17,361 nucleotides of DNA from Thermodesulfovibrionales bacterium (GTDB lineage: Bacteria > Nitrospirota > Thermodesulfovibrionia > Thermodesulfovibrionales > UBA6898). A program made the position numbers and the translations under genes. How positions within the stretch are numbered: position 1 is the stretch's first letter; every line of letters starts with the position of its first letter. The stretch lies in the NCBI GenBank assembly GCA_044450345.1, contig JBIOIY010000061.1, positions 1 through 17,361 on the forward strand, written 5' to 3'. Shown here one piece after another: positions 3,367-17,117 of this stretch. The notes below the pieces were generated by a model. It saw only the letters and a program-made list of their open reading frames with translations, made no database searches and had not been told where the DNA came from.

Positions 3367-4929
3367 TTATTTTGCGTATTCAACATATCTCGACTCTCTT
3401 ATGACGGTCACCTTTATCTGGCCAGGATAAGACATTTCGGCCTCGATCTTCTTCGAGAGGTCCCTTGCGATCAACGACGACATCTCATCGTTGATGTCCT
3501 CCGGTTTCACGATGATCCGTATCTCTCTTCCCGCCTGGATGGCATAACACTTATCGACGCCCTTAAAGGAAAGCGCCATCTTTTCAAGTGCCTCGAGCCT
3601 CTTCAAATAGTGCTCGATACTTTCCCTGCGCACACCCGGTCTTGCCGCCGAGAGGGCGTCCGCAGCCGCAACGAGCGAGGCCTCGACCGTAATCGGGTCG
3701 CCTTCGCCATGATGTACCAGGATGGCATTTATGACCTTATTGTTTTCACTGTGTTTCCGTGCGAGATTCGCGCCGATCTCCTGGTGGGTCCCCTCGATTT
3801 CGTGGTCGACGGCCTTGCCGATATCATGGAGAAGGCCGGCCCTCTTAGCCAGTTTGGCATCGACGCCGATTTCTCCGGCCATCATCCCTGCGATGTAGGC
3901 CACCTCACGGGAATGCTGCAGCACGTTTTGGCCGTAGGAAGTCCTGTATTTCAGCCTTCCGAGAGTCTTGACGAGCTCCGGGTGGATGCCGGAAAGCCCC
4001 AGGTCGAAGACGGCCTTTTCCCCTTCTTCCCTGAGATTGATCTCCACTTCTTTTTTTACCTTTTCCACTATCTCTTCTATCCGTGTGGGATGGATGCGTC
4101 CGTCGGCGATTAGGCGCTCGAGCGAAAGCCTTGCGATCTCTCGCCGGACAGGGTCGAATGCGGAAAGTGTTACCATCTCAGGCGTATCGTCCACGATCAG
4201 GTCTACCCCGGTGGCCGCCTCGAGCGCCCTGATGTTTCTGCCTTCTCTGCCTATGATCCTGCCTTTCATTTCGTCGTTCGGAAGACTGACCGCCGTAACG
4301 GTCGCATCTGCAACATAATCGCTTGCGTACCGTTGTATTGCAGAACCCATGACCTCTTTGGCCTTCTTCTCTGCATTCTCCTTCGCCTCATCTTCGATCC
4401 TCTTGACAAGCTTTGCGATTTCGAAACGGCTGTCGTCTTCGGTGCGCCTGAGGATCTCCTGTTTCGCCTCTTCCGAGGTAATCCCGGAGAGTTTTTCGAG
4501 GACGAGGGTCTGTTCCTTCAGGAGGTTGTTGTACTTGTTCTCTTTTTCCTGTATCGTACGTTCCTTCCCGTTGTATTCTTTCTCCCTCTTGGAGAGTTCG
4601 TGATCCCGTTTGTCTACCTGATCGAATTTTCTCTCGATCGTTTCTTCCTTCTGTCTGAGCCTCTTTTCAAGATGGCCCAGTTCGGAACGTCTTTCACGCA
4701 ATTCTTTCTCCGCATCGGTCTTTGCCTGGTACACGATGTCCTTGGCCTCGAGAGACGCCTCTTTTTTTATTGATTCCGCCTCTTTGAGCGCCACATCGAC
4801 TATCTTTTTCTTTTCGGTATTGATTGAATCCCTTTGTGTCTTGAGGGCGTTTCTGTAAATAAGACTCAAGATCAGGCCGATCACGATTCCAGCGCCGACA
4901 GAGGCAAGCAGATAAACCATGTTAATCAT
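3367..4929 (-). CDS. rny: Ribonuclease Y
   Basis: N-terminal TM anchor, coiled coil, KH domain ([13 protein letters not shown]) and HD domain (LLHDIGK). Start moved to ATG 4929 (SD AAGGAGGAG 8 nt upstream), giving 520 aa; overlaps the end of rarA by 8 nt. Confidence 0.97.
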
Positions 4930-6199
4930 CAGTAGTGCTCCTCCTTTTTTGCAGCCGTGATTTAATGACCTTTTCATATCCTTCCGTGGAAGGAGTATAA
5001 AAAGATTTATGGATATGCATATAGTCCTGTTTAATGTAATGTCCGTCGAAGCTGTGAGGATACAGGTATCCCTTTCCGGCTCCCAGCCTCTTAGCCCCGG
5101 CATAGTGGGAATCCTTAAGGTGGTCGGGGACAGGCTGAACGGGTTGGGTCCTGATCTCCTCGATCGCCTTTTCTATGGCGGAACACGAGGCATTGCTCTT
5201 GGGGGCCGCGGCAACGTAGATGGCCGCCTGTGACAGCGGTATCCTGCCTTCCGGCATCCCGATCCTCTCCAGTGCCTGCATGGCGGCTACTGCCACTGCG
5301 AGCGCCTGCGGGTCTGCATTGCCGACGTCTTCCGAGGCGCAGATGACGATCCTTCGTGCAATGAAGAGCGGGTCTTCTCCTGATTCGAACATCTTCGCCA
5401 TCCAGTAGACAGCTGCGTCCGGGTCTGACCCCCGCATGCTCTTTATGAAAGCGGAGATAGTATCGTAGTGGTCATCTTCATCATAGTAGAGTGTCTTGTT
5501 CTCTAAAACCTCTTTGACATGGCGGAGGGTTATGATGCGTCCGCCTTCTCCCCCGTCACCTGAAGAAAGGAAGGCGAGTTCGAGTATATTCAGCGCCCTT
5601 CTCGCATCGCCTTCGCTCACAGAGGCGATAAAGTCTATCGCTTCGTCTTCGATAGAGGCGCGATGGTCGCCGAGGCCCCTTGTGTCTGAAAGCGCCCTCG
5701 TTACAAGCCTTTTCAGATCGTCTTTAGGTATAGGACGGAACTGAAAGATCACAGACCGCGAAGAAAGTGCCGGGACAAGTGAAAAGAAGGGGTTTTGTGT
5801 AGACGCACCGATAAGCGTCAGTTCACCGGTCTCGATATAGGGGAGGAGGGCGTCCTGCTGTATCTTATTGAAACGGTGGATCTCGTCGACAAAGAGTATT
5901 GTTTTTTCAGACCTTATCGAAGAGACCGCCTCCCTTATCTCCTTTATGCCGGCGGTGACGGCGTTTATTGAGATGAATTCCGCCCTTGTTTTTTTTGCGA
6001 TAATATGGGCGAGGGCGGTCTTGCCTGTTCCCGGCGGACCGTATAATATAACGGAGACGATCTTGTCTTCTTCTATAAGCCGTCTGAGCGGTCTGAGCGG
6101 GCCAAGCAGATGGGATTGGCCGAGGAAGTCACCGAAATCCTCAGGCTGCATGCGCCAAGCAAGCGGAGAAGTCCTTCTCTGGGTCTTAAAAAGTTCCAA
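4922..6199 (-). CDS. rarA: Replication-associated recombination protein A (RarA/MgsA AAA+ ATPase)
   Basis: Walker A GPPGTGKT, Walker [47 protein letters not shown] start. Confidence 0.95.
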
Positions 6200-8133: not shown

Positions 8134-8454
8134 ATGTCCAGACTGCCTAACCAATATGTGGGGATAGGGAAAAGGTTCAAGAAGTATTTTAATGCACTTA
8201 ACGCGCTTGGAAAGGCCGCGAAGGGCTCGGGACCGCTCGATGAAAGAATGTCCCAGCTCATACAACTTGCCGGGGCGGCGGCCGTACGGTCGGAAGGGGC
8301 AGTACATTCCCACGCGAGGAGGGCGCTCGAGGCCGGGGCAAAGCCGGAGGAACTGTACCATACCCTCCTTCTGCTTACGAGTACGATCGGCTTTCCGACT
8401 GTTTCCGCGGCGATCTCATGGATTGACGATGTCCTGGCGAAAAAGGGGCGGTGA
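8134..8454 (+). CDS. Carboxymuconolactone decarboxylase (CMD/AhpD-like) family protein without CxxC
   Basis: LDER...LIQLA, SEGAVHSHARRALEAGA..EEL and TIGFP motifs. Confidence 0.85.
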   Translation: MSRLPNQYVGIGKRFKKYFNALNALGKAAKGSGPLDERMSQLIQLAGAAAVRSEGAVHSHARRALEAGAKPEELYHTLLLLTSTIGFPTVSAAISWIDDVLAKKGR

Positions 8455-8920
8455 TTATTTTGCGGAAGTCAAAGAGGGCTTGCGATCTAAATAATATCCT
8501 CAGGACCCTCATATGCCTTTAACGCATCTTCAACGAAACAACATCCAGCTGAATGCGGAACAATCGAACTCGCAGAGTTTTTACTTGTAGACGGAAGCCC
8601 TGTAACCCGACGTTATTGCATTGTAGAAAACAAAAAAACCTTACACACTATGCGATGGTGACTATGCAAACGTGGCTATTAGGAAACCACTGCTTGGCGA
8701 TTAGCCGAAGCTTATCACCATCGTACAATGAATAAAGTTTTCTCCTAATATTTTGTTTGCACATCAGGTGGCTAATATATCTGTAATCACAATATCAGTC
8801 ATTAGAAATCTGTCAAGGACAGATATCCACAGGAGCCTTTTCAGGAAAGGGGGCGCTAAGAGAGAGTAACAGCAGGTGGGCAGGTCAGTGACATCTCTTG
8901 TAAATGGAATTAGCGACTTT

Positions 8921-9063
8921 CACTTTCTTTTGGAAGTCTTCGCTCCCCGCTTATAGCGGTGCCGAGAAGCCGACTTATCCGCACTTTCAAAAAACCGAAA
9001 CTCTATCAAGGATACAGTAAGAATAACATGTTCGGAGTTTCAGCCACTAACTTACATCATCAG
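8921..9063 (+). repeat. Degenerate dispersed repeat, copy B (homologous to 2262-2418, minus)
   Basis: By hand count, 24/34 ungapped identity over 8970-9003, 22/33 over 8996-9028 (these two blocks share cgaaactc), 12/15 at 8921-8935, and an exact 14-mer at 9037-9050. Confidence 0.65.
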
Positions 9064-9143
9064 CGAAATTGAATGTTAGTGATTATGAACGAAACGTGCC
9101 AAACAACCGCTCTTGTCTCACAGAGAGTCGCAATTCCCAAATG

Positions 9144-9172
9144 TTCCATTATGAGTTAATGAGGGGTATAAT
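9144..9172 (+). promoter_or_regulatory. Putative sigma70 promoter of the accessory membrane/lipid cluster
   Basis: TTCCAT (9144-9149), 17 nt, TATAAT (9167-9172), about 40 nt upstream of the first ORF. Confidence 0.5.
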
Positions 9173-9213
9173 GACAAAAGTAGCCAATGAGGTCGGCGCA
9201 GGGGAAAAAAGTG

Positions 9214-10011
9214 ATGGAGAGTCGATCGAATTTCCAGCTTTCAAAATGGTACATGGACTGCGTCGCGGGGGACGGAGCGGTTATTATCGCCTATTGTGCA
9301 GTGCTTCGCTGGCGGCGCCTATCTATTAATTACGCAAGTATCTTGGAACATCGTGACAGGATGGGGACAACGATGAACACTTCGCTGCGAAGGCATCCCT
9401 TGCCAAAAGTGATAGGCCCGGCGCTTTTCTGGAATTCGCATCGTTTAGGGATTGAAGGGAGATGGAAAGCCCTTTCTTCTCCCCTTCACAGGACACTGTT
9501 TGAGTCGGATCAGGGGATAGTAGAATGGCACTGTTACCAGCCTCAGTCTGAAGTTTCTATTCAGATTTCTCCTAATACTTCCATTCTCGGTTACGGATAT
9601 GCCGAGCACCTCCTGATGACCATCAAGCCCTGGGAACTGCCCATTGAAGAATTGAGATGGGGCAGGTTTGTTTCCAAGAGGGATAGCCTTGTTTGGATAG
9701 ACTGGAGAGGCCAGTCGCCTCAAAGCCTTGTGTTCTATAATGGCGTTCAAATAGGACATGCCTCTGTCGGTGATCGCAATATCGTTCTTGATGAGGGGAA
9801 GACGAGTCTATCTTTTGAGGAAAGCATCGTATTGCGCGAGGGCTTCCTCTTTTCCAACGTGCTTCACATGATTCGGGTTTTCAGAAAGATTCTGCCTGCG
9901 CGTTTTCTGCAGACTTACGAGTGCAAATGGCGTAGTCGTGGGATTTTGAGAAGTGGGCAATTTATATCAAGTACTGGCTGGGTAATTCATGAGGTGGTAA
10001 AATTTGGCTAA
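9214..10011 (+). CDS. Hypothetical Trp-rich beta-strand protein, tentatively CrtC/AttH/tocopherol-cyclase-like fold
   Basis: Long ORF without signal or TM segments; KWYMDCV, GYGYAE and LRWGRF resemble the W-Y-x-D, G-x-G-Y-x-[DE] and W-x-W-G-R motifs of CrtC/AttH-like barrels. Alternative starts at 9187 and 9211. Confidence 0.55.
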   Translation: MESRSNFQLSKWYMDCVAGDGAVIIAYCAVLRWRRLSINYASILEHRDRMGTTMNTSLRRHPLPKVIGPALFWNSHRLGIEGRWKALSSPLHRTLFESDQGIVEWHCYQPQSEVSIQISPNTSILGYGYAEHLLMTIKPWELPIEELRWGRFVSKRDSLVWIDWRGQSPQSLVFYNGVQIGHASVGDRNIVLDEGKTSLSFEESIVLREGFLFSNVLHMIRVFRKILPARFLQTYECKWRSRGILRSGQFISSTGWVIHEVVKFG

Positions 10012-10082
10012 GAGGGGAATATCAAGGGCATTTTTGGCCAACGAAGTCTTTCCAAAGAAGAAGAAACGCGAGAAGTTCGAAG

Positions 10083-10712
10083 ATGCCTCCTGAACTCATC
10101 CTTGAGACAAAAAGCATAAAAAAGTTCTTCGGCCATCACAGGGTACTCGAAGATATCACCTTTCAGATGGGGCAAGGTCAGATAGTCGGGATCGTGGGCG
10201 AGAACGGTTCGGGGAAGAGCACACTCCTCAAAATCCTCGCTGGTCTTCTACCGCCGACTTCGGGTGAGTTGCACATAGAGGGCCGCGTCGGATTCTGTCC
10301 GCAGGACCCATTACTCTTCGAGACCCTGACGGTGAGGGAGAATTTCCGATATTTCGCTACTGCCTACGGATTGGACAAAACCGGTACCATGCCTCTTTGG
10401 GAATCTGTGAAGAGGGAGTTGTTGGACCGATTCCATTTCTATCATTATGAAAATAGAATTGTCTCGGAGTTGAGCGGAGGGACGAAGCAGAAATTGAACC
10501 TTTCCCTGGCGCTTCTTCACTCGCCCGACACGGTACTTCTCGATGAACCGTATTCGGGATTTGACTGGGAGACCTATCTCAATTTCTGGCAGTATGCTGA
10601 AGAACAGAGGTCAAAGGGGAAGGGTATTATAGTCGTCACACATTTTGTGTACGAGCGAGCTAAATTCGACACCCTCTTTGAGCTGAAAGAAGGCATCCTA
10701 CGATGCGTATGA
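10083..10712 (+). CDS. ABC transporter ATP-binding protein (exporter type)
   Basis: Walker A GENGSGKST, Q-loop CPQ, signature LSGGTKQK, Walker B VLLDEP, H-loop VTH. Confidence 0.93.
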   Translation: MPPELILETKSIKKFFGHHRVLEDITFQMGQGQIVGIVGENGSGKSTLLKILAGLLPPTSGELHIEGRVGFCPQDPLLFETLTVRENFRYFATAYGLDKTGTMPLWESVKRELLDRFHFYHYENRIVSELSGGTKQKLNLSLALLHSPDTVLLDEPYSGFDWETYLNFWQYAEEQRSKGKGIIVVTHFVYERAKFDTLFELKEGILRCV

Positions 10713-11467
10713 GCTACATCAGAACTTCCACCATGATGACGGGAAAAGACCTTTTGCGGAATCGAATCGCAGTGATTCTCTTCCTGCTGATCCCAAGTCT
10801 TTTCTTTGCACTCATTATATTGACCACGTCGGAGCGACCCATTTTCTTTAAACTGGCCTCCGTTTCCGGGGAGACACTTCTTCAAGTGAGCGAAAGAAAA
10901 GAGGCTCTGATTTTTATCGGCCTCGCCGCCACTGGGCTCATATCTTCGTTTCTCGGTCTAAACCTCCTTCAAGAGCACTCCGGAGTTGATCGCAGGCTAG
11001 TCCTGTGCGGATATAGCACATCGGAATTGATAGTCTCGAAGCTCGTTGTTTTGCTATGCGTTATTTTAATCACAGGAGTTTATGTCGCATCGATGATTCT
11101 GGTGTCTTTTCAACCCCGCCATTTTCTACAGATGATCTCCGGTTTCATTCTGGGTGGATTCGTATACGGATGCTATGGGTTACTCGTTGGTACGATTTTC
11201 AAAAAGGAACTGGAAGGCATCCTCTTCATTGTCCTCTTAGCCAACATCGACGCAGGATGGTTGCAAAACCCGATCTACTATGCTGAGGCGCAGAACAAAG
11301 CAATTATTCGAAGCTTACCCGCTTATTTCCCGTCACAGGCGAGTATGGCCGCTGCCTTTACTGATCATTCGGTCATCAATCCCTTAATGCGGGGGATAAT
11401 TTATGGGATTGTTCTCCTGTTCGTCGCTCTCTTTATTTATTGGAGGAGAATGGGCATCAGGAAATGA
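10703..11467 (+). CDS. ABC-2 type exporter permease
   Basis: About six hydrophobic segments, DRRLVLCGYS coupling loop, overlap with the ATPase stop; alternative ATG at 10709. Confidence 0.8.
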   Translation: MRMSYIRTSTMMTGKDLLRNRIAVILFLLIPSLFFALIILTTSERPIFFKLASVSGETLLQVSERKEALIFIGLAATGLISSFLGLNLLQEHSGVDRRLVLCGYSTSELIVSKLVVLLCVILITGVYVASMILVSFQPRHFLQMISGFILGGFVYGCYGLLVGTIFKKELEGILFIVLLANIDAGWLQNPIYYAEAQNKAIIRSLPAYFPSQASMAAAFTDHSVINPLMRGIIYGIVLLFVALFIYWRRMGIRK

Positions 11468-11507
11468 AGGTTGAATATAAAGATCGTTGGCTGAGGAGAA
11501 AGTTCTA

Positions 11508-13442
11508 ATGGATAAGACATACACACAGATAATTGAAAAAATTCTTTACGCCTTTTTATTTCTGATCGTTTTGCCCGCTTCACTCATTCTCTGGGCACGG
11601 GCAACCGCAGGGTGTGTGCCACTCCTCGTTGTTGGGTCTTTTCAGATCGGCGCTGTTCTCGCCATCTGCGGCGCAGTCATCATGATTACAGGCATGGTAG
11701 CACTCTCGGCATATGGTAACGGACTTCCCATGAGCCCATTCCCTCCTTCCCGCTATGTAACCGAGGGCATTTACGGTTTCATGCCCCATCCAATTTACTC
11801 GGGCTTTTCGCTTCTCTGCGTCGGCACTGCTATGGCTGCAAAATCAGCAAGTGGTTTATGGCTTGTATCGCCGATTGTGATCTTGGCTTGCACTGCCTGG
11901 GTGCTTGGGTTCGAAAGAGATAGTCTGCGAAGGCGTTTCGGGTCTCTTATAACGAAAGCTTTTATCCACCTTCCCGAAGATAAAGCGAGTGCACCGACCC
12001 TCGCGGACCGGTTATCGGTGTACGTTCTGGTTTTCTTTCCCTGGCTTATCCTTTATCAAGCGGTTCGGATTTTTGGGATTCCTCCCGATGCGCACATTGC
12101 CTTCTTCTCTTTTGAGATCGATTTGCCGGTCTATGAATGGACAGAAGTCTTTTATATAAGCACGTATCCTTACGTTCTCTTGGCTCCATTGGCAGCTAAG
12201 AAAATGCATGATCTCCGGAAGTTTTCAATATCCGGATTGATAGCGACCGGAATAATCATTCCGTTATTTCTTATCGTTCCCCTGATCGCTCCACCGCGAC
12301 CGTTTACTCCCAACAGCTTTTTGGGAAATCTTCTAGCTTTGGAGCGGGTATTCGACACTCCAGCCGCTGCTTTTCCCTCTTTCCATGTTTTCTGGGCACT
12401 GCTCGCCGCATCCGTATACGCTGAGGCCAAGCCTTCTTGGAGGATATTTTGGTGGGGATGGGCATTCATAATCGTTGTAAGCTGTATAACCACGGGCATG
12501 CACGCCCTGGTGGATGTACTTGCAGGAGCGGTCGCCTTTTTGTTCGTTTTACATATAGATAAGATATGGGAAAAGATCCTATTAATTGTGGAGGGTATAG
12601 CGAATTCATGGAGGGAGTGGCGTTTTGGCTCTGTCCGGTTAATCAACCACGGAATATACGCTGGCATCGGTTCATTTCTCGGACTTTCTTTAGTCGGGGT
12701 GTTACTTGGCCAAGGGTATATCGCCCCATCCCTTATTGTCGCCCTGTCATCGGTCATCATATCGGCTCTTTGGGCCCAGTTTATTGAGGGATCGGCCGTT
12801 CTGCTGCGGCCATATGGTTATTACGGCGGTGTGTTCGGCGTTGTTTTAGGCTCGCTGATAGCGAAATGGGTCGGAGCAGATGTGTGGCTATTGCTCGCTG
12901 CTTTCAGCGTCGCGGGTCCATGGATTCAGGCCTTTGGCAGATTGCGCTGCCTGGTGCAGGGATGCTGCCACGGCCGCGAGGCATCGAGGGAAATCGGAAT
13001 CCGTTATGTCCATCCGCGCTCGCGCGTCACGCAGATTGCAGGGCTCACGGACATCCCTATTCATCCGACACCTTTATACTCGATACTCTGGAACATCGTT
13101 GTCGGGCTTATCATGGCGCGCCTGTGGTCACTTCACTCACATCCCCCTTTCATCGGAGGATTATATTTGATATTGACGGGGCTTGGAAGGTTTGTCGAAG
13201 AAAATTACCGCGGAGAACCGCAGACCCGCATTTTATGGGGACTCCGTCTTTATCAGTGGCTCGCCGTTGGCGCGGTCATTGCGGGTGCTATCGTTACCAC
13301 TGTCCATTATCGCGTTGAGGTGCCATCGCCAATGTTCAATTGGAAGTCTGTTATGGTGGCGGCGTGCGTCGGCATTCTAACGTTTTTTGCCTTTGGAGCT
13401 GATTTTCCTAATTCGAAGAAACGCTTCTCCCGGCTGGTTTAG
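11508..13442 (+). CDS. Three-domain polytopic membrane protein: PEMT/ICMT-like + PAP2/AUR1-like + Lgt-like
   Basis: N-terminal GNGLPMSPFPP..YVTEGIYGFMPHPIY and ERDSLRRRFG; central APPRP, AFPSFH and SCITTGMHALVDVLAG; C-terminal YYGG, GRLRCLVQGCCHG, HPTPLYS and RFVEENYRGEP. ATG 11508 preferred (SD GAGGAG at 11493-11498). Confidence 0.8.
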   Translation: MDKTYTQIIEKILYAFLFLIVLPASLILWARATAGCVPLLVVGSFQIGAVLAICGAVIMITGMVALSAYGNGLPMSPFPPSRYVTEGIYGFMPHPIYSGFSLLCVGTAMAAKSASGLWLVSPIVILACTAWVLGFERDSLRRRFGSLITKAFIHLPEDKASAPTLADRLSVYVLVFFPWLILYQAVRIFGIPPDAHIAFFSFEIDLPVYEWTEVFYISTYPYVLLAPLAAKKMHDLRKFSISGLIATGIIIPLFLIVPLIAPPRPFTPNSFLGNLLALERVFDTPAAAFPSFHVFWALLAASVYAEAKPSWRIFWWGWAFIIVVSCITTGMHALVDVLAGAVAFLFVLHIDKIWEKILLIVEGIANSWREWRFGSVRLINHGIYAGIGSFLGLSLVGVLLGQGYIAPSLIVALSSVIISALWAQFIEGSAVLLRPYGYYGGVFGVVLGSLIAKWVGADVWLLLAAFSVAGPWIQAFGRLRCLVQGCCHGREASREIGIRYVHPRSRVTQIAGLTDIPIHPTPLYSILWNIVVGLIMARLWSLHSHPPFIGGLYLILTGLGRFVEENYRGEPQTRILWGLRLYQWLAVGAVIAGAIVTTVHYRVEVPSPMFNWKSVMVAACVGILTFFAFGADFPNSKKRFSRLV

Positions 13443-13768
13443 GTATGCGATAAAGATGACACTAAAAGGCAGAAGATTTTACTTCGGAAGCCGTGAAGGC
13501 AAGCATTAAACAAACGCCCCTTGCGAATCAAATATCTTCATTTAGGGTTGGAAGCGTTACTGCTAAGGAGAAGGCTTCTCTAAAGGATATAGGGAGAATG
13601 CGTGAAAAATTGTTCCTTCCGGTGTGTATTTGTTGGAGGAAGGACATCACATTTTACATCTACCTCTTTCGAGAGTAGATGATTAACGGTAAAGAGAGTG
13701 CATGAGGGGAATGGACACCAAGTTATGAAATGCGTTTACAACACCTGTAAACAGAAATGCCGTCTACA

Positions 13769-13972
13769 TTATACTCTCTTTTTCTTTAAACCCAATTCTT
13801 CAGCTACGATATTAAATGCACGCCCCTTTTGATTGCGAGGATCAGATTTTGCTCGACGCAGTTCCAATAAATCGTGATAGTCTTCTAACTCTTCCTGCAT
13901 ACGCACAAAGTCTTTATAAGGGATCACAGCAAATTGTTTTTTGCCTTGTTTCTCAATGATCTGAGCTTCCAT
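13769..13972 (-). CDS. Putative type II antitoxin (RelB/Phd-like)
   Basis: 67 aa with FAVIPYKDF..MQEELEDYHDL and acidic core; ATG directly follows the toxin stop (TAAATG). Confidence 0.7.
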   Translation of the reverse strand: MEAQIIEKQGKKQFAVIPYKDFVRMQEELEDYHDLLELRRAKSDPRNQKGRAFNIVAEELGLKKKRV

Positions 13973-14221
13973 TTATCTATAGGCCTCCTTTCGATGAAGA
14001 ATTCGGTAAATTATAATCTTGTTTGTAGAAACTTCGAATAGCACACGCCAAACACCAACCCGTAGTCGATACTCAGGTGTATGATTCGTTAGTTTCTTTA
14101 TCTTTCCCGTAAGTCCATTTTCCAAAGCAAAAATTGCATCTGCGATTTTTTGAGCATCGGGCTTCGAAAGAGATGCCAAATCTTTTTCGGCCCGTTTGCG
14201 AATTTCTAATTCATATCGCAT
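13973..14221 (-). CDS. RelE/ParE family toxin
   Basis: 82-aa basic protein with IKKL, YRLRVGVWRVLF and ILHRKEAYR. Confidence 0.9.
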   Translation of the reverse strand: MRYELEIRKRAEKDLASLSKPDAQKIADAIFALENGLTGKIKKLTNHTPEYRLRVGVWRVLFEVSTNKIIIYRILHRKEAYR

Positions 14222-14227
14222 GGATTT

Positions 14228-14233
14228 ATTATA
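14228..14233 (-). promoter_or_regulatory. -10 box 6 nt upstream of the toxin ATG (probable leaderless transcript)
   Basis: Minus strand reads cggTATAATaaatccATG; no SD. Confidence 0.6.
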
Positions 14234-14480
14234 CCGCAGAACCTTTTAGAAAATGGAATGGGGTTTACCGAAAACACCGTGCTGACGATAAGATCAACTC
14301 GTCCGGCTGTTCGACCTGTTTATCTTCTCTTCAACAACACTTCTTTTTTTCACATACTGATGCCTCATCTAAGGCATTTTTTTCTCATAGCTCGATGACC
14401 CGATTTAGCTGCTCCGCGCTCAGCGGGGCAACGCTTAAAAGACTCCTGACTTTAATCCGATAGATAGGTTAAAATTGCTG

Positions 14481-16031
14481 GTGTCACTGAGTGAATGCAA
14501 TAACATATTGGTGAGAGGTGTTAACTGGATCGGCGATGCGGTAATGACGATGCCGGCATTGAGGGCGCTCAGACTTGCCAACCGGTCTTCGAGGATAACG
14601 CTGCTGGTAAAACCATGGGTCGCTCCGCTGTTCGAGAAGGACCCGAATATAGACGAGATCATGCTTTATTCGGACGAATATCAGGGCATTTCGGGAAGGA
14701 TCAAACTCTCAAAAAAACTCAGGAGACAGGGTTTCTGTGCTGCACTTCTTCTTCAAAACGCGTTCGATGCCGCCCTCGTCACAACGCTTGCAGGGATCCC
14801 TGAAAGGGTCGGGTATGGCAGGGACGCGAGGGGGTTCCTTCTCACAAAGGCTATCCGCGTTGATGGCCTGACAAAGGGTCTTCACCATATTGACTATTAC
14901 CTCAACCTCTTATCAAAGGCCGGATTGCCCGCAGTGAAAGCCTTGCCCTGGATTTATCTTCAGATTGAAGAACGGTTTGGAGCGAGGGATATGTTAAAAG
15001 ATCTGAAGCGGCCGGTCGTCGCGATCAACCCTGGGGCAGCATATGGGTCTTCGAAGAGATGGCACCCGGAGAGATTTGCCGAGGTCGCAATGAAAGTCAT
15101 CGATGACCTCAGCGGCAGCGTGCTGGTCTTGGGAGGGCCGTCTGAGGCGTCTATCGCAGATGAGATATGTAAAGTTTTAAACGGTTCACTTTCTAATGCG
15201 TTATATTCAGAGCGTGTCTTGTCTGTTGCCGGTAAGACGGACCTGCGTCAATTGGCGGCCCTGATCTCGGAGTGCGACCTTTTAGTGACCAACGATTCGG
15301 GTCCAATGCATATAGGATATGCCGTGGGCACCCCTCTTGTCGCGGTGTTCGGCTCTACGTCGTCTGATCACACGGGCCCCGTAGGCGAAGGTAACCGGGT
15401 GGTCAGAAAAGATATTGAGTGCGCCCCTTGCTATGAAAGGACCTGCAGACGCGGGGATTTGAAGTGCATGGACCTTATTACCGCCGATGAGGTATTCGAA
15501 CCGGTAAGAAGTCTTATGAGCCATCATAGGGCGGTATTCTTCGACAGGGACGGCACGCTCTGCAGAGATGCCGAGTATCTTAACAGGATGGAAGACCTTG
15601 AAATCTTCGGGAAGATTGATGCGCTGAAGAAGCTCAGGGAAAAGGGGTTCTCCCTGATCGGCGTTTCAAACCAGTCTGGGGTTGCAAGGGGAGTTGTGGA
15701 AGTAGAGTTCGTGAGAAAGGTGAACAGGCTCTTTATAGATGAATACGGGTTCGATGATTTTTATTACTGCCCGCACCATCCCGACGAACATTGTTCCTGC
15801 AGAAAGCCCGAGCCTGGACTCCTCTATCGGGCAAGGGCGGAGCATAACATCGACCTGAGGGCATCTTACGTAGTCGGTGATAAAGAGGCGGATCTACTCC
15901 TTGCCAGATCGGTCGGCGCGAAGGCAATTCTTGTAAGGACGGGAAAGGATGAGACTTCTCCTTACGCGGATTTTGTCGCGGAAGATCTTGAAGCGGCCGC
16001 AGGTTTTATCCTCGGAGCGAGCGGCGGATAG
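14481..16031 (+). CDS. waaF: LPS heptosyltransferase II (GT9) fused to heptose-1,7-bisphosphate phosphatase (GmhB, HAD)
   Basis: ILVRGVNWIGDAVM, NPGAAYGSSKRW and TNDSGPMH, then from about 15516 AVFFDRDGTL, SNQSG, CPHHP..CSCRKP and VGD in the same frame. Start is GTG 14481 or TTG 14475. Confidence 0.9.
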   Translation: MSLSECNNILVRGVNWIGDAVMTMPALRALRLANRSSRITLLVKPWVAPLFEKDPNIDEIMLYSDEYQGISGRIKLSKKLRRQGFCAALLLQNAFDAALVTTLAGIPERVGYGRDARGFLLTKAIRVDGLTKGLHHIDYYLNLLSKAGLPAVKALPWIYLQIEERFGARDMLKDLKRPVVAINPGAAYGSSKRWHPERFAEVAMKVIDDLSGSVLVLGGPSEASIADEICKVLNGSLSNALYSERVLSVAGKTDLRQLAALISECDLLVTNDSGPMHIGYAVGTPLVAVFGSTSSDHTGPVGEGNRVVRKDIECAPCYERTCRRGDLKCMDLITADEVFEPVRSLMSHHRAVFFDRDGTLCRDAEYLNRMEDLEIFGKIDALKKLREKGFSLIGVSNQSGVARGVVEVEFVRKVNRLFIDEYGFDDFYYCPHHPDEHCSCRKPEPGLLYRARAEHNIDLRASYVVGDKEADLLLARSVGAKAILVRTGKDETSPYADFVAEDLEAAAGFILGASGG

Positions 16032-16067: not shown

Positions 16068-17117
16068 GTGTCCGGCGCACCAACTCATACGATATCGTTA
16101 GTGAAAACCCCGAAAAAAATCCTGATCGTCAAGCCGAGTTCCCTGGGCGACGTTGTGCACAGTCTCCCGTTTCTTTGTTCGATGAAATCCTGTTTCCCGA
16201 GGTCCGAAATCCATTGGGTCATCGCAAAGGGACTGGAGGGGCTGCTGGATGGAAATCCGATGATCAACAGGCTTATCGTCATTAATAAGGATGTCTGGAA
16301 GAAGATTTCGCACGCAGCTGATACGGTGCGGGAGGTAAGGAGGCTTTTTAAAGAAATCAGGGAGGAACGATACGATCTGGTGGTAGACCTGCAGGGACTT
16401 CTGAGGAGCGGCATCATCACGATGGCCTCCAGCGCCCCTGCGAGGATCGGGTTTACAGAGGCCAGGGAAGGCAGCAGTTTTTTTTATACCGATAAGGTAA
16501 GGGGAGGGAAGGGCCTGCATGCTGTCGATAGGTACATGAAGATCGCCGTTGCGCTGGGGTGTGAAAAGGTTGGAGCCGTCTTCCCGTTCCCCCCTTTTAA
16601 GAACGGAGATTCGTGGGTGAGGTCGTTCAAGAGGGACCTAAAGGAATATGTCGTTATTGTCCCGGGGGCGAGGTGGGAGACCAAGATCTGGCCTGCAGAG
16701 AATTTTGGTAAAGTTGCTTCCCTGCTCCCTGTGCGTTCCGTGGTGGTCGGAAGCAGCGCGGATATAGGGATTGGGGAAAAGATTGTCTCATCTTCCCGCG
16801 GCAGGGCGGTATCAGTGGCCGGGAAAACGACCCTCACGGAACTGATCGAAATAATGAAGGGGGCGAGGCTTGCTATATCGAACGATTCAGGCCCGATGCA
16901 CATTGCCGCTGCCTTCGGCGTTCCGGTAGTTGCCATATTCGGGCCTACGAGTCCGGAGAGGACGGGGCCATACGGAAGTTCTCATGTAATTATAAGAAGC
17001 GGCGCTGCCTGTGCCCCTTGCTTCAAAAAAAAATGCGCGGATTTGAAGTGCATGAAAGAAGTCACGCCTGAAGAGGTTGGTAAGAGGGTAAGGGAGTTTT
17101 TTGGAGCTTTGAAATAA
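16068..17117 (+). CDS. waaC: LPS heptosyltransferase I-like (GT9)
   Basis: KILIVKPSSLGDVVHSLP, DLQGLLRS, SNDSGPMHIAAA, FGPT; adjacent to waaF; alternative GTG start at 16101. Confidence 0.8.
   Translation: MSGAPTHTISLVKTPKKILIVKPSSLGDVVHSLPFLCSMKSCFPRSEIHWVIAKGLEGLLDGNPMINRLIVINKDVWKKISHAADTVREVRRLFKEIREERYDLVVDLQGLLRSGIITMASSAPARIGFTEAREGSSFFYTDKVRGGKGLHAVDRYMKIAVALGCEKVGAVFPFPPFKNGDSWVRSFKRDLKEYVVIVPGARWETKIWPAENFGKVASLLPVRSVVVGSSADIGIGEKIVSSSRGRAVSVAGKTTLTELIEIMKGARLAISNDSGPMHIAAAFGVPVVAIFGPTSPERTGPYGSSHVIIRSGAACAPCFKKKCADLKCMKEVTPEEVGKRVREFFGALK

Follow-up and report, generated by a model that had tools for sequence, protein, structure and literature searches.

A gene cluster on contig JBIOIY010000061.1 of a Thermodesulfovibrionales bacterium (assembly GCA_044450345.1) had been proposed in an earlier note to encode an undescribed system for lipid modification and export. 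We analyzed the whole 17,361-nt stretch, here called the window, to which all coordinates refer, and find that the conserved core of the cluster is g1 together with g4, not all four genes. The product of g1 is predicted to adopt the AttH/CrtC fold, whereas g4 encodes a membrane protein in which a PEMT/ICMT-type methyltransferase, a PAP2_3 domain and an Lgt-type domain are fused. The interpretation we favor, at slightly less than an even chance, is a self-contained membrane-lipid modification module that was gained by horizontal transfer. Genes are numbered g1 to g4 from 5' to 3' and were taken from the open reading frame (ORF) listing of the window, and their domains were assigned by Pfam and NCBIfam scans. 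As the earlier note had described, the four genes share one orientation and are closely spaced (9187-13442, + strand), with 71 nt between g1 and g2, an overlap of 10 nt between g2 and g3 and 19 nt between g3 and g4.

The evidence for this core comes from other genomes. A scan of species-representative genomes with the single g4 protein as query found no relative, but an alignment-based scan detected g4 relatives in 543 stretches, of which the best 80 loci were compared. These loci span at least eight phyla, are mostly labeled Acidobacteriota and all bear labels of diderm phyla; further labels are Bacteroidota, Ignavibacteria, Chlorobiaceae, Gemmatimonadota, Nitrospirota, Zixibacteria, Methylomirabilota, Desulfobulbales, Polyangiaceae and one Synechococcus record. 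The g4 of this last locus (L022, labeled Synechococcus sp.) groups with Chitinophagaceae and Ignavibacteria rows in the g4 tree, a position that indicates that its label or binning may be wrong. Most named carriers are uncultured bacteria of soil, peat and sediment. According to the family hidden Markov model (HMM), a g1-family gene adjoins g4 in 77 of the 80 loci, and the three loci without it (L004, L035, L063) have no DNA upstream of g4. BLAST placed a g1 homologue directly upstream of g4 on the same strand in 71/80 loci, with an estimated gap of -13 nt in the median (range -28 to +74). A g1-like gene lies on the opposite strand in L023, and a diverged, longer g1 subtype is found in L017, L018, L028, L032 and L041; L018, L032 and L041 were included in the training alignment of the g1 HMM, L017 and L028 were outside it. 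No other gene cluster is conserved near g4 in more than six of the 80 loci, the remaining neighbors being lineage-specific housekeeping genes (MacB/FtsX, OprB, GlnD, sigma-54 regulator, SSF, FtsK, peptidases, GH32, GT4). Over 62 loci, the pairwise distances of g1 and g4 correlate with r = 0.95, a value that none of 999 Mantel permutations reached and to which shared ancestry contributes. The g4 fusion family comprises at least 2,175 protein clusters at 90% identity, the g1 family 1,430 clusters at 50% identity with E<=1e-3 and 731 with E<=1e-30. In 17 protein clusters (P0172, P0391-P0406; 689-970 aa, one of them labeled Polyangiaceae) both proteins are joined naturally into a single g1::PEMT..LGT chain with g1 at the N-terminus of g4. 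Linkage and natural fusions together argue that g1 probably binds g4. As homologues of the cluster co-occur across genomes, a point on which the earlier proposal holds, we regard it as a functional system and not as a chance juxtaposition.

Sequence models give no hint of the identity of g1: no Pfam or NCBIfam family matched even at E<=10, CrtC or AttH models matched none of 42 g1-family members, and a search of the g1 profile against PDB sequences yielded nothing relevant. The resemblance to CrtC and AttH claimed earlier is nevertheless strongly supported by the predicted fold. The model built from the 42-sequence alignment is all-beta (predicted local distance difference test, pLDDT, 94; predicted template modeling score, pTM, 0.89), and Foldseek identified it as the AttH/CrtC double barrel (3e-8 to 5e-7, prob 1.0). 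In VIA-align, 14 entries of the AttH superfamily matched the model with Z 17.1-22.4, whereas the next unrelated fold reached only Z 9.0. The matches include the fungal decalin Diels-Alderases MycB, Fsa2, CghA and Phm7 (Z 21-22), 25-phosphosteroid lyase (19.6), AttH (2ich, 19.5) and kievitone hydratase (17.2). Long hydrophobic molecules are the ligands of enzymes with this fold, which catalyze the addition or elimination of water or phosphate at double bonds. No 19-aa window of the g1 protein attains a Kyte-Doolittle hydropathy of 1.6, and its translation likely starts at the ATG at 9214, because the match to the family profile begins there. Three subfamilies share K20, W21, Y22, D24, W114, Y138, R160, K247 and E269 without exception, and an acidic residue (D or E) occupies position 140 throughout. 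Several of the shared residues are basic (K20, R160, K247), so the ligand may carry an anionic group. Key residues described for CrtC are H239, W241, Y266 and D268 (PMC4717167), and the spacing W114...Y138-x-[D/E]140 in g1 resembles W241...Y266-x-D268, a likeness of sequence spacing that covers three of the four residues.

For g4, the triple fusion of PEMT, PAP2 and Lgt domains that had been read from the sequence is confirmed by three Pfam families above their cut-offs. The database form of the protein has 644 aa and starts from the ATG at 11508. An alignment of 25 fusion proteins (A1) shows a mean column identity of 64%, and the predicted model (pLDDT 77.4, pTM 0.75) resolves three domains; searches of PDB-chain sequences with the g4 profile and with each half of g4 gave nothing useful. 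The N-terminal domain matches PEMT (PF04191, 1.5e-8, 35.4 bits, cut-off 25), whereas the ICMT family PF04140 remains below its cut-off (17.9 bits against 24). In a wide VIA search eukaryotic ICMT (5vg9) matches residues 17-181 with its catalytic half, at Z 9.8 over 126 aa and a root-mean-square deviation (rmsd) of 3.8, followed by a sterol reductase (4quv, Z 8.8) and Ma-ICMT (4a2n, Z 7.0); model pLDDT is 46-85 in this region and such Z scores are middling for helical proteins. No ICMT match for this domain appears in the Foldseek list alone. Within the methyltransferase segment H101-P102-I103-Y104, E143, F151 and G152 are invariant in the 25 fusion proteins and R150 is conserved in at least 90%.

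The central domain matches PF14378 (2.4e-14, 54 bits, cut-off 27). PAP2 enzymes have an active site of three motifs with two histidines and one aspartate, and this site (H300, H339, D343) is kept in the 25 fusion sequences. R271, F296-P297, F299, S332, H339 and D343 are invariant, and S298 and H300 are conserved in at least 90% (FPSFH; SC..TGMH...D). The nearest structures to residues ~157-359 in VIA are SMSr (8ijq, Z 12.1), inositol phosphorylceramide (IPC) synthase (9vj4, 11.8) and Aur1 (9ivc, 11.6), while the lipid phosphatases LpxE of Aquifex (6ebu, Z 10.8) and PgpB (9.6) follow about 1-2.5 Z units below. Overall, many PAP2 structures match the domain with Z 9-12. Judged by the predicted model, its nearest counterparts would be phosphotransferases of the sphingomyelin/IPC-synthase type rather than BcrC-type phosphatases, with LpxE and PgpB scoring almost equally.

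At the C-terminus, the LGT family of Pfam matches aa 444-604 (2.7e-21, 76.4 bits, cut-off 24.9), and the thresholds of both equivalog models are missed (TIGR00544, 41.4 versus 118.9 bits; NF000778, 62.6 versus 334). Foldseek found E. coli Lgt (5azb) with 2.9e-5 and prob 1.0, and in VIA the entire E. coli Lgt (chain 6-286) is matched by model residues 365-610 (Z 14.4, 215 aa, rmsd 3.7). Conserved Lgt-type segments in the fusions are GRLRCLVQGCCHG, HPTP.YS and RFVEE.YRGEPQT. An alignment of E. coli Lgt (NC_000913) with two host Lgt proteins and six fusion proteins (A3) shows that, in E. coli numbering, G142, R143, G150, G154, H196, P197, Y201, R239, E243 and R246 are kept and that six residues are replaced (Y26->H, H103->Y, N146->C, N149->Q, E151->C, E202->S). 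Two of these correspond to g4 H388 (Y26) and Y446 (H103), which are both conserved in at least 90% of the fusion family. In the available text on E. coli Lgt, R143 is catalytically essential (Mao 2016, PMC4728403), and roles are described for R143, R239, E243, R246, G154 and H196. The same source reports that Y26 touches the sn-2 ester of phosphatidylglycerol and proposes H103 of the HGGL motif as the site for the lipobox peptide; H103Y fails to complement in E. coli (PMC4728403). This pattern of residues suggests that the chemistry with phosphatidylglycerol as donor may be kept, while the acceptor site would be unlike that for prolipoproteins. The host genome carries two full-length ordinary Lgt genes apart from g4. 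The second of these paralogues (G000 contig C47:3205-3936, L002) likewise has a Tyr at position 103 together with a Cys-rich signature motif, so the H103Y and Cys changes are not unique to the fusion, and Cys-rich 'C-type' Lgt proteins may represent a distinct functional subgroup.

Between g1 and g4, the ABC (ATP-binding cassette) exporter noted earlier is borne out by matches to PF00005 and PF12698 in two overlapping genes. The best NCBIfam models for g2 are RbbA and DrrA, both far under their cut-offs (best 25 of 217 families). L018 (Aminicenantes; 58% identity for g2 and 59% for g3) is the only one of the 80 genome loci with the ABC pair between g1 and g4, so that of the four-gene system proposed earlier the pairing of g1 with g4 proved to be obligate but the ABC pair did not. 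A metagenome scan seeded with the g3 permease gave 16 loci with permeases 57-70% identical, and seven of the eight with at least 1 kb upstream of the ATPase gene have a g1-family gene. Orthologues of g2 with 52-66% identity adjoin g1-family genes in L018, L115, L117, L107-L110 and L118, and the order g1-g2-g3-g4 is repeated in three other loci (L018, L115, L117). The ABC pair, rare in the genome loci but recurring in the permease-seeded metagenome set, is thus a recurrent accessory. A quick maximum-likelihood tree built from 72 g4 rows puts the three ABC-bearing rows within one 12-row group (Shimodaira-Hasegawa-like approximate likelihood ratio test, SH-aLRT, 85), but they are not monophyletic.

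The permease-seeded loci also revealed larger versions of the cluster. L107-L110 contain a diverged version (26-34% identity) with a radical S-adenosylmethionine (SAM) enzyme fragment, a g1-like gene and a 500-518-aa PEMT::LGT protein without PAP2, followed by a separate PAP2_3 gene (254 aa, L107), the ABC pair, a pyridoxal phosphate-dependent decarboxylase of the Orn/DAP/Arg type and an aldehyde dehydrogenase. The four enzyme folds thus remain in one cluster, be they fused or divided among genes. A PAP2_3 protein comes first in L106 and L113, L119 and L120 hold permease, decarboxylase and aldehyde dehydrogenase, and in L118 a gene for a SPASM radical SAM enzyme occurs with a g1-like gene, the ABC pair and a gene of no assigned family. 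In L017, L028, L041, L107 and L118 the g1-like gene follows a radical SAM gene. The partner in L017:4782-6026, L028:4839-6071 and L041:998-2191 is a ~400-aa radical SAM protein with a Cys-rich C-terminal region, located before the diverged g1; NCBIfam models show only generic similarity to the radical SAM partner, all far under cut-offs. The clusters with decarboxylase and aldehyde dehydrogenase (L107:1-8269, L110, L106, L119, L120) hint at an amino-acid-derived head group.

Horizontal acquisition is indicated by the comparison with relatives of the host. In a genome of the same genus (G004, 84-89% nucleotide identity) the positions equivalent to 8463 and 14446 of the window lie 57 bp apart between the CMD-family gene and the GT9-HAD gene, and hence 8464-14445 represents an insertion or deletion difference. 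The location between core genes (CMD and waaF) stated in the earlier note therefore applies to the flanks, but the module is not native there, residing on a ~6-kb insertion that has no counterpart in the same-genus genome. No direct repeats, tRNA-like or Rfam features were found at the island borders. In 40 relatives from genus, family and order g4 does not occur as a fusion, with at most single-domain matches, and the g1 family is present in 3/301 genomes sampled from the phylum, the genome of the window included. The g4 tree places the protein of the window among rows from Acidobacteriota and Aminicenantes, apart from the other Nitrospirota row. A blastx search with the 723-bp non-coding left part and the right part of the island against all neighborhood ORFs gave nothing (best E 0.07).

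How could these activities be combined? In the mechanism we propose, g1 would sit at the cytoplasmic N-terminus of g4, where it would bind and probably hydrate or otherwise activate a common lipid of the cell, and the adjoining PEMT/ICMT-type domain would then methylate that lipid with SAM at the cytoplasmic face. At the outer face of the inner membrane, the PAP2_3 domain, similar to IPC and sphingomyelin synthases, would transfer or remove a phospho-head group, and the Lgt-type domain would move a diacylglyceryl group from phosphatidylglycerol to an acceptor other than a normal prolipoprotein. Where it is encoded, as here between g1 and g4, the ABC-2 exporter could flip or export an intermediate or the product and thereby link both faces. 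The pathway would end in a modified and methylated complex lipid of a kind not described previously. We infer these substrates, the order of steps and the product from the observed folds, motif conservation, linkage, fusions, accessory genes and island; SAM and phosphatidylglycerol are the likely co-substrates. Because the module moves between phyla by itself, and because this host is already equipped with two Lgt genes, it would have to act on lipids that are common to any such cell. The N-terminal end of g4 should be cytoplasmic, because the natural fusions place g1 there and g1 has no hydrophobic segment. If the helices of the g4 model are counted from a cytoplasmic N-terminus, the SAM-binding loops fall inside, and the PAP2 motifs and the Lgt signature outside. 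This arrangement also fits the topologies of ICMT and PAP2 enzymes. The outside placement of the Lgt signature agrees with the topology described for E. coli Lgt (PMC4728403). That g1 and g4 together are the synthase of an undescribed lipid class is a more tentative idea, to which we would give perhaps one chance in three at best. One possibility would be that Lgt-type chemistry passes a diacylglyceryl group from phosphatidylglycerol to a lipid or head-group precursor that is hydroxylated or bears an amino group, and that methylation with SAM comes next. Acidobacteriota, Bacteroidota, Gemmatimonadota and further bacteria from soils and sediments would then have a membrane lipid with an ether or thioether linkage, perhaps poor in phosphate, and the versions with radical SAM enzyme, decarboxylase and aldehyde dehydrogenase would make elaborated forms of it.

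Several points weigh against a lipid-modification module of this kind. The g4 model is only of middling confidence (pLDDT 77), and Z scores of 7-10 are weak alone for a helical domain. The predicted topology derives from the fusion, the helix count in the model and the topologies of the reference enzymes. The replacement of H103, Y26, N146 and E151 means that the donor or the chemistry of the Lgt-type domain may differ from those of Lgt. In the 17 g1::g4 fusion clusters only PEMT and LGT were detected and no PAP2 family, and the PAP2 motifs of P0172 are degenerate, so in these clusters the PAP2 step would be unnecessary or provided in trans. Since 79/80 genome loci lack the ABC pair, export is no intrinsic function of the module. 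Moreover, all 80 comparison loci are from metagenome-assembled genomes.

The strongest rival explanation, which we nonetheless consider unlikely, is a remodeling of lipid A/lipopolysaccharide (LPS) or undecaprenyl phosphate that would change surface charge and confer antimicrobial tolerance. In such a system PAP2 would act on the periplasmic side like LpxE, LpxT or BcrC, the Ste14-like domain like LmtA and the ABC pair like BcrAB or Wzm/Wzt. The substrates needed would be those of any Gram-negative cell, which agrees with the diderm labels of 80/80 named carriers, and the Z scores of Aquifex LpxE and PgpB are near those of the best PAP2 matches, even if the latter are phosphotransferases (SMSr, IPC synthase, Aur1) and Pfam assigns the domain to PAP2_3. 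Precedents are the Ste14p-like LmtA, a methyltransferase for the lipid A 1-phosphate, and LpxE and LpxT, which act at position 1 (PMC4402001). However, no model of BcrA, BcrC, LpxE or LmtA is among the NCBIfam matches listed (for g2, the best 25 of 217). The island does adjoin heptosyltransferase genes, but this place beside waaF-like genes is the result of insertion and is not conserved in other loci. Remodeling of this type would also leave the obligate AttH-fold partner and the Lgt-type domain without a role.

The earlier note had also considered the lipidation and methylation of a peptide or small molecule with subsequent export. In a version of this idea for a peptide or protein, the Lgt-type domain would place a diacylglyceryl group on a cysteine of a special substrate, the ICMT-type domain would methyl-esterify a carboxyl group in a CaaX-like manner and the ABC pair would export the product. 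The complete Lgt fold with its Arg/Glu set, the ICMT-superfamily fold, the source annotation 'Ste14' and the frequent partnership of ABC exporters with peptide systems agree with this idea. Still, we find it improbable, about half as credible as lipid A or undecaprenyl-phosphate remodeling, since no conserved small ORF, protease or precursor gene lies beside the pair in 80 loci, and H103, the proposed lipobox-peptide site in E. coli, is a Tyr here. In addition, the methyltransferase and Lgt sites would be on opposite sides of the membrane, if the inferred topology holds, and the AttH fold is known for small hydrophobic substrates. Marginally less probable again is the tailoring of an isoprenoid, in which g1 would hydrate a terminal double bond of a carotenoid or hopanoid like CrtC, followed by O-methylation as in the CrtC/CrtF route. 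The AttH/CrtC fold of g1 would suit this, as would the resemblance of W114...Y138-x-[D/E]140 to the spacing of the CrtC key residues (PMC4717167), a correspondence seen at the level of sequence spacing; one nearby Atlas cluster has CrtC_C on 11% of its members. The host genome (91% complete) has no gene of the SQS_PSY family, which makes a carotenoid substrate unlikely there. A squalene-hopene cyclase is present in the host, but it was not found in four of five Bacteroidota/Ignavibacteria carriers, whose completeness is unknown, and the fifth gave a partial match of 20.5 bits, which makes hopanoids unlikely as a general substrate. Isoprenoid tailoring would, moreover, leave the PAP2 and Lgt domains unexplained.

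The features of the window are listed in Table 1.

Table 1. Positions of the module, its domains, the island and the flanking features in the window
Feature	Position	Strand	Description
CMD-family gene	8134..8454		Upstream flank; assigned by Pfam
Insertion island	8464..14445	.	5,982 bp; holds the module and the toxin-antitoxin pair; 57 bp at this place in G004
Dispersed element	about 8978..9026	+	~50 nt, one copy, ~160-210 nt ahead of g1
g1	9187..10011	+	274 aa; soluble protein with predicted AttH/CrtC-fold double beta-barrel; obligate partner of g4
g2	10083..10712	+	ABC transporter ATPase, accessory; ABC_tran PF00005 5e-29, 102 bits
g3	10703..11467	+	ABC-2 type permease, accessory; ABC2_membrane_3 PF12698 3.1e-8, 33.5 bits (cut-off 31.6)
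g4	11487..13442	+	651-aa polytopic membrane fusion PEMT/ICMT + PAP2_3 + Lgt
g4 domain 1	11646..11942	+	PEMT/ICMT-type SAM-dependent membrane methyltransferase, aa 54-152
g4 domain 2	12141..12545	+	PAP2_3 domain, sphingomyelin/IPC-synthase type nearest, aa 219-353
g4 domain 3	12579..13316	+	Complete Lgt-type diacylglyceryl-transferase fold, aa 365-610; then extra helix and invariant basic tail
Phd/YefM-like antitoxin	13769..13972	-	PF02604 1e-4, 22.4 bits, under cut-off 29.8
ParE-type toxin	13973..14221	-	PF05016 7.4e-10
GT9 heptosyltransferase with C-terminal HAD-type phosphatase domain	14475..16031		PF01075 + PF13242/PF00702
Second GT9 heptosyltransferase	16068..17117		After the GT9-HAD gene

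The DNA ahead of g1 differs from its earlier description. A single promoter-like element could not be reproduced: no sigma-70 site was found on the + strand upstream of g1, and the scan gave seven sites in total against 8.6 expected by chance. Neither could the degenerate repeat, as Tandem Repeats Finder (TRF) detected no tandem repeat in 8400-9250; present instead are one copy of a dispersed element and a sub-threshold match resembling a CRISPR direct repeat. The genome has five further copies of the dispersed element on other contigs, with 81-94% identity and a strongly conserved core (alignment A4). No Rfam family covers the element, which might be a regulatory site or a small mobile repeat. 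The match to the CRISPR-DR25 model (8917-8941; 28.4 bits, gathering score 36, E 0.014) is a single copy without an array.

In the toxin-antitoxin (TA) pair downstream of g4 the toxin gene is ahead of the antitoxin gene, and both are within the island. The ParE/Phd pair is not conserved next to g4 in other loci and is probably a stabilizing passenger outside the lipid module. A role in anti-phage defense found no support: for g2, PADLOC reported no more than generic similarity to ABC ATPases, and g1, g3, g4 and the TA genes gave no match. An alanine racemase gene is also found upstream of the module (Pfam). Further upstream, the RNase Y ORF (3367-5103, - strand) has 578 aa from its first ATG; its true start is probably further downstream, since close database relatives all have 520 aa. 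The names borne by RNase Y relatives point to a Nitrospirota/Thermodesulfovibrionales-like host.

No paper was found on PAP2 with a diacylglyceryl transferase and ICMT, on Lgt with PAP2 (with or without PEMT) or on Lgt with AttH in a literature search that left most subscription journals outside its scope, and literature on branched glycerol dialkyl glycerol tetraethers (brGDGT) and Acidobacteria yielded nothing that links these genes. The earlier statement that no characterized pathway combines all these domains thus agrees with our search, which returned no matching pathway. Each of the four enzyme folds is known, yet their obligate combination is common and undescribed in the literature found. 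If a new lipid is made, the lipidomes of Acidobacteriota and their neighbors, of which little is known, would gain a further biosynthetic route, and alkyl transfer of the Lgt type would prove to be used beyond lipoprotein maturation. The module is small and self-contained, so a direct test by heterologous expression and lipidomics is possible.

Compared with known systems, the individual parts are familiar and their arrangement is not. The BcrABC layout invoked by the earlier note shares with the module an ABC ATPase, a permease and a PAP2 domain in one cluster. Beyond this co-occurrence of gene types the parallel ends: the ABC pair is not a regular member of genome loci, the PAP2_3 type is fused to two enzymes, an AttH-fold partner is obligatory and no Bcr model is among the NCBIfam matches listed (best 25 of 217 for g2). 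The analogy is further weakened because the PAP2 domain of the model appears nearest to sphingomyelin/IPC-synthase-type phosphotransferases, not to BcrC-type phosphatases. With IPC synthase, Aur1 and SMS-related enzymes (9vj4, 9ivc, 8ijq) g4 has in common PAP2_3, the best structural Z scores and the His/His/Asp site, but identity is only 10-14%, the PAP2 domain of g4 is fused between two enzymes and no ceramide pathway is linked to it. ICMT/Ste14, PEMT and LmtA are similar to g4 in the PF04191 match and the HPIY and E...RFG motifs, with a middling Z for the fold of the ICMT catalytic half, whereas the domain of g4 has only ~100-160 aa and does not reach the cut-off of the ICMT model. The whole fold of seven transmembrane helices and the catalytic Arg/Glu set are shared with E. 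coli Lgt (5azb/5azc); in g4, however, Lgt is the C-terminal domain of a 651-aa fusion with a shorter head region, an extra C-terminal helix and an invariant basic tail.

Like CrtC, kievitone hydratase, 25-phosphosteroid lyase, the decalin Diels-Alderases and Hgs, g1 combines a double beta-barrel with a conserved Tyr/acidic pair, but it is smaller (~260 aa versus 320-380), matches no sequence model and has a membrane fusion as partner. By analogy, its nearest precedent would be the archaeal hydroxy-GDGT synthase Hgs, an AttH-like hydratase that hydroxylates the tails of membrane lipids (Garcia et al., bioRxiv 10.1101/2025.10.20.683597). In the available text of the same preprint, close Hgs homologues are almost exclusively archaeal and the Hgs gene overlaps a radical SAM desaturase gene (Ted-Hgs). 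The g1 gene resembles Ted-Hgs in overlapping its partner gene and in that a radical SAM gene is sometimes found ahead of it. If a new lipid is indeed made by g1 and g4, the role of the AttH fold in the tailoring of membrane lipids would extend from archaea to bacteria.

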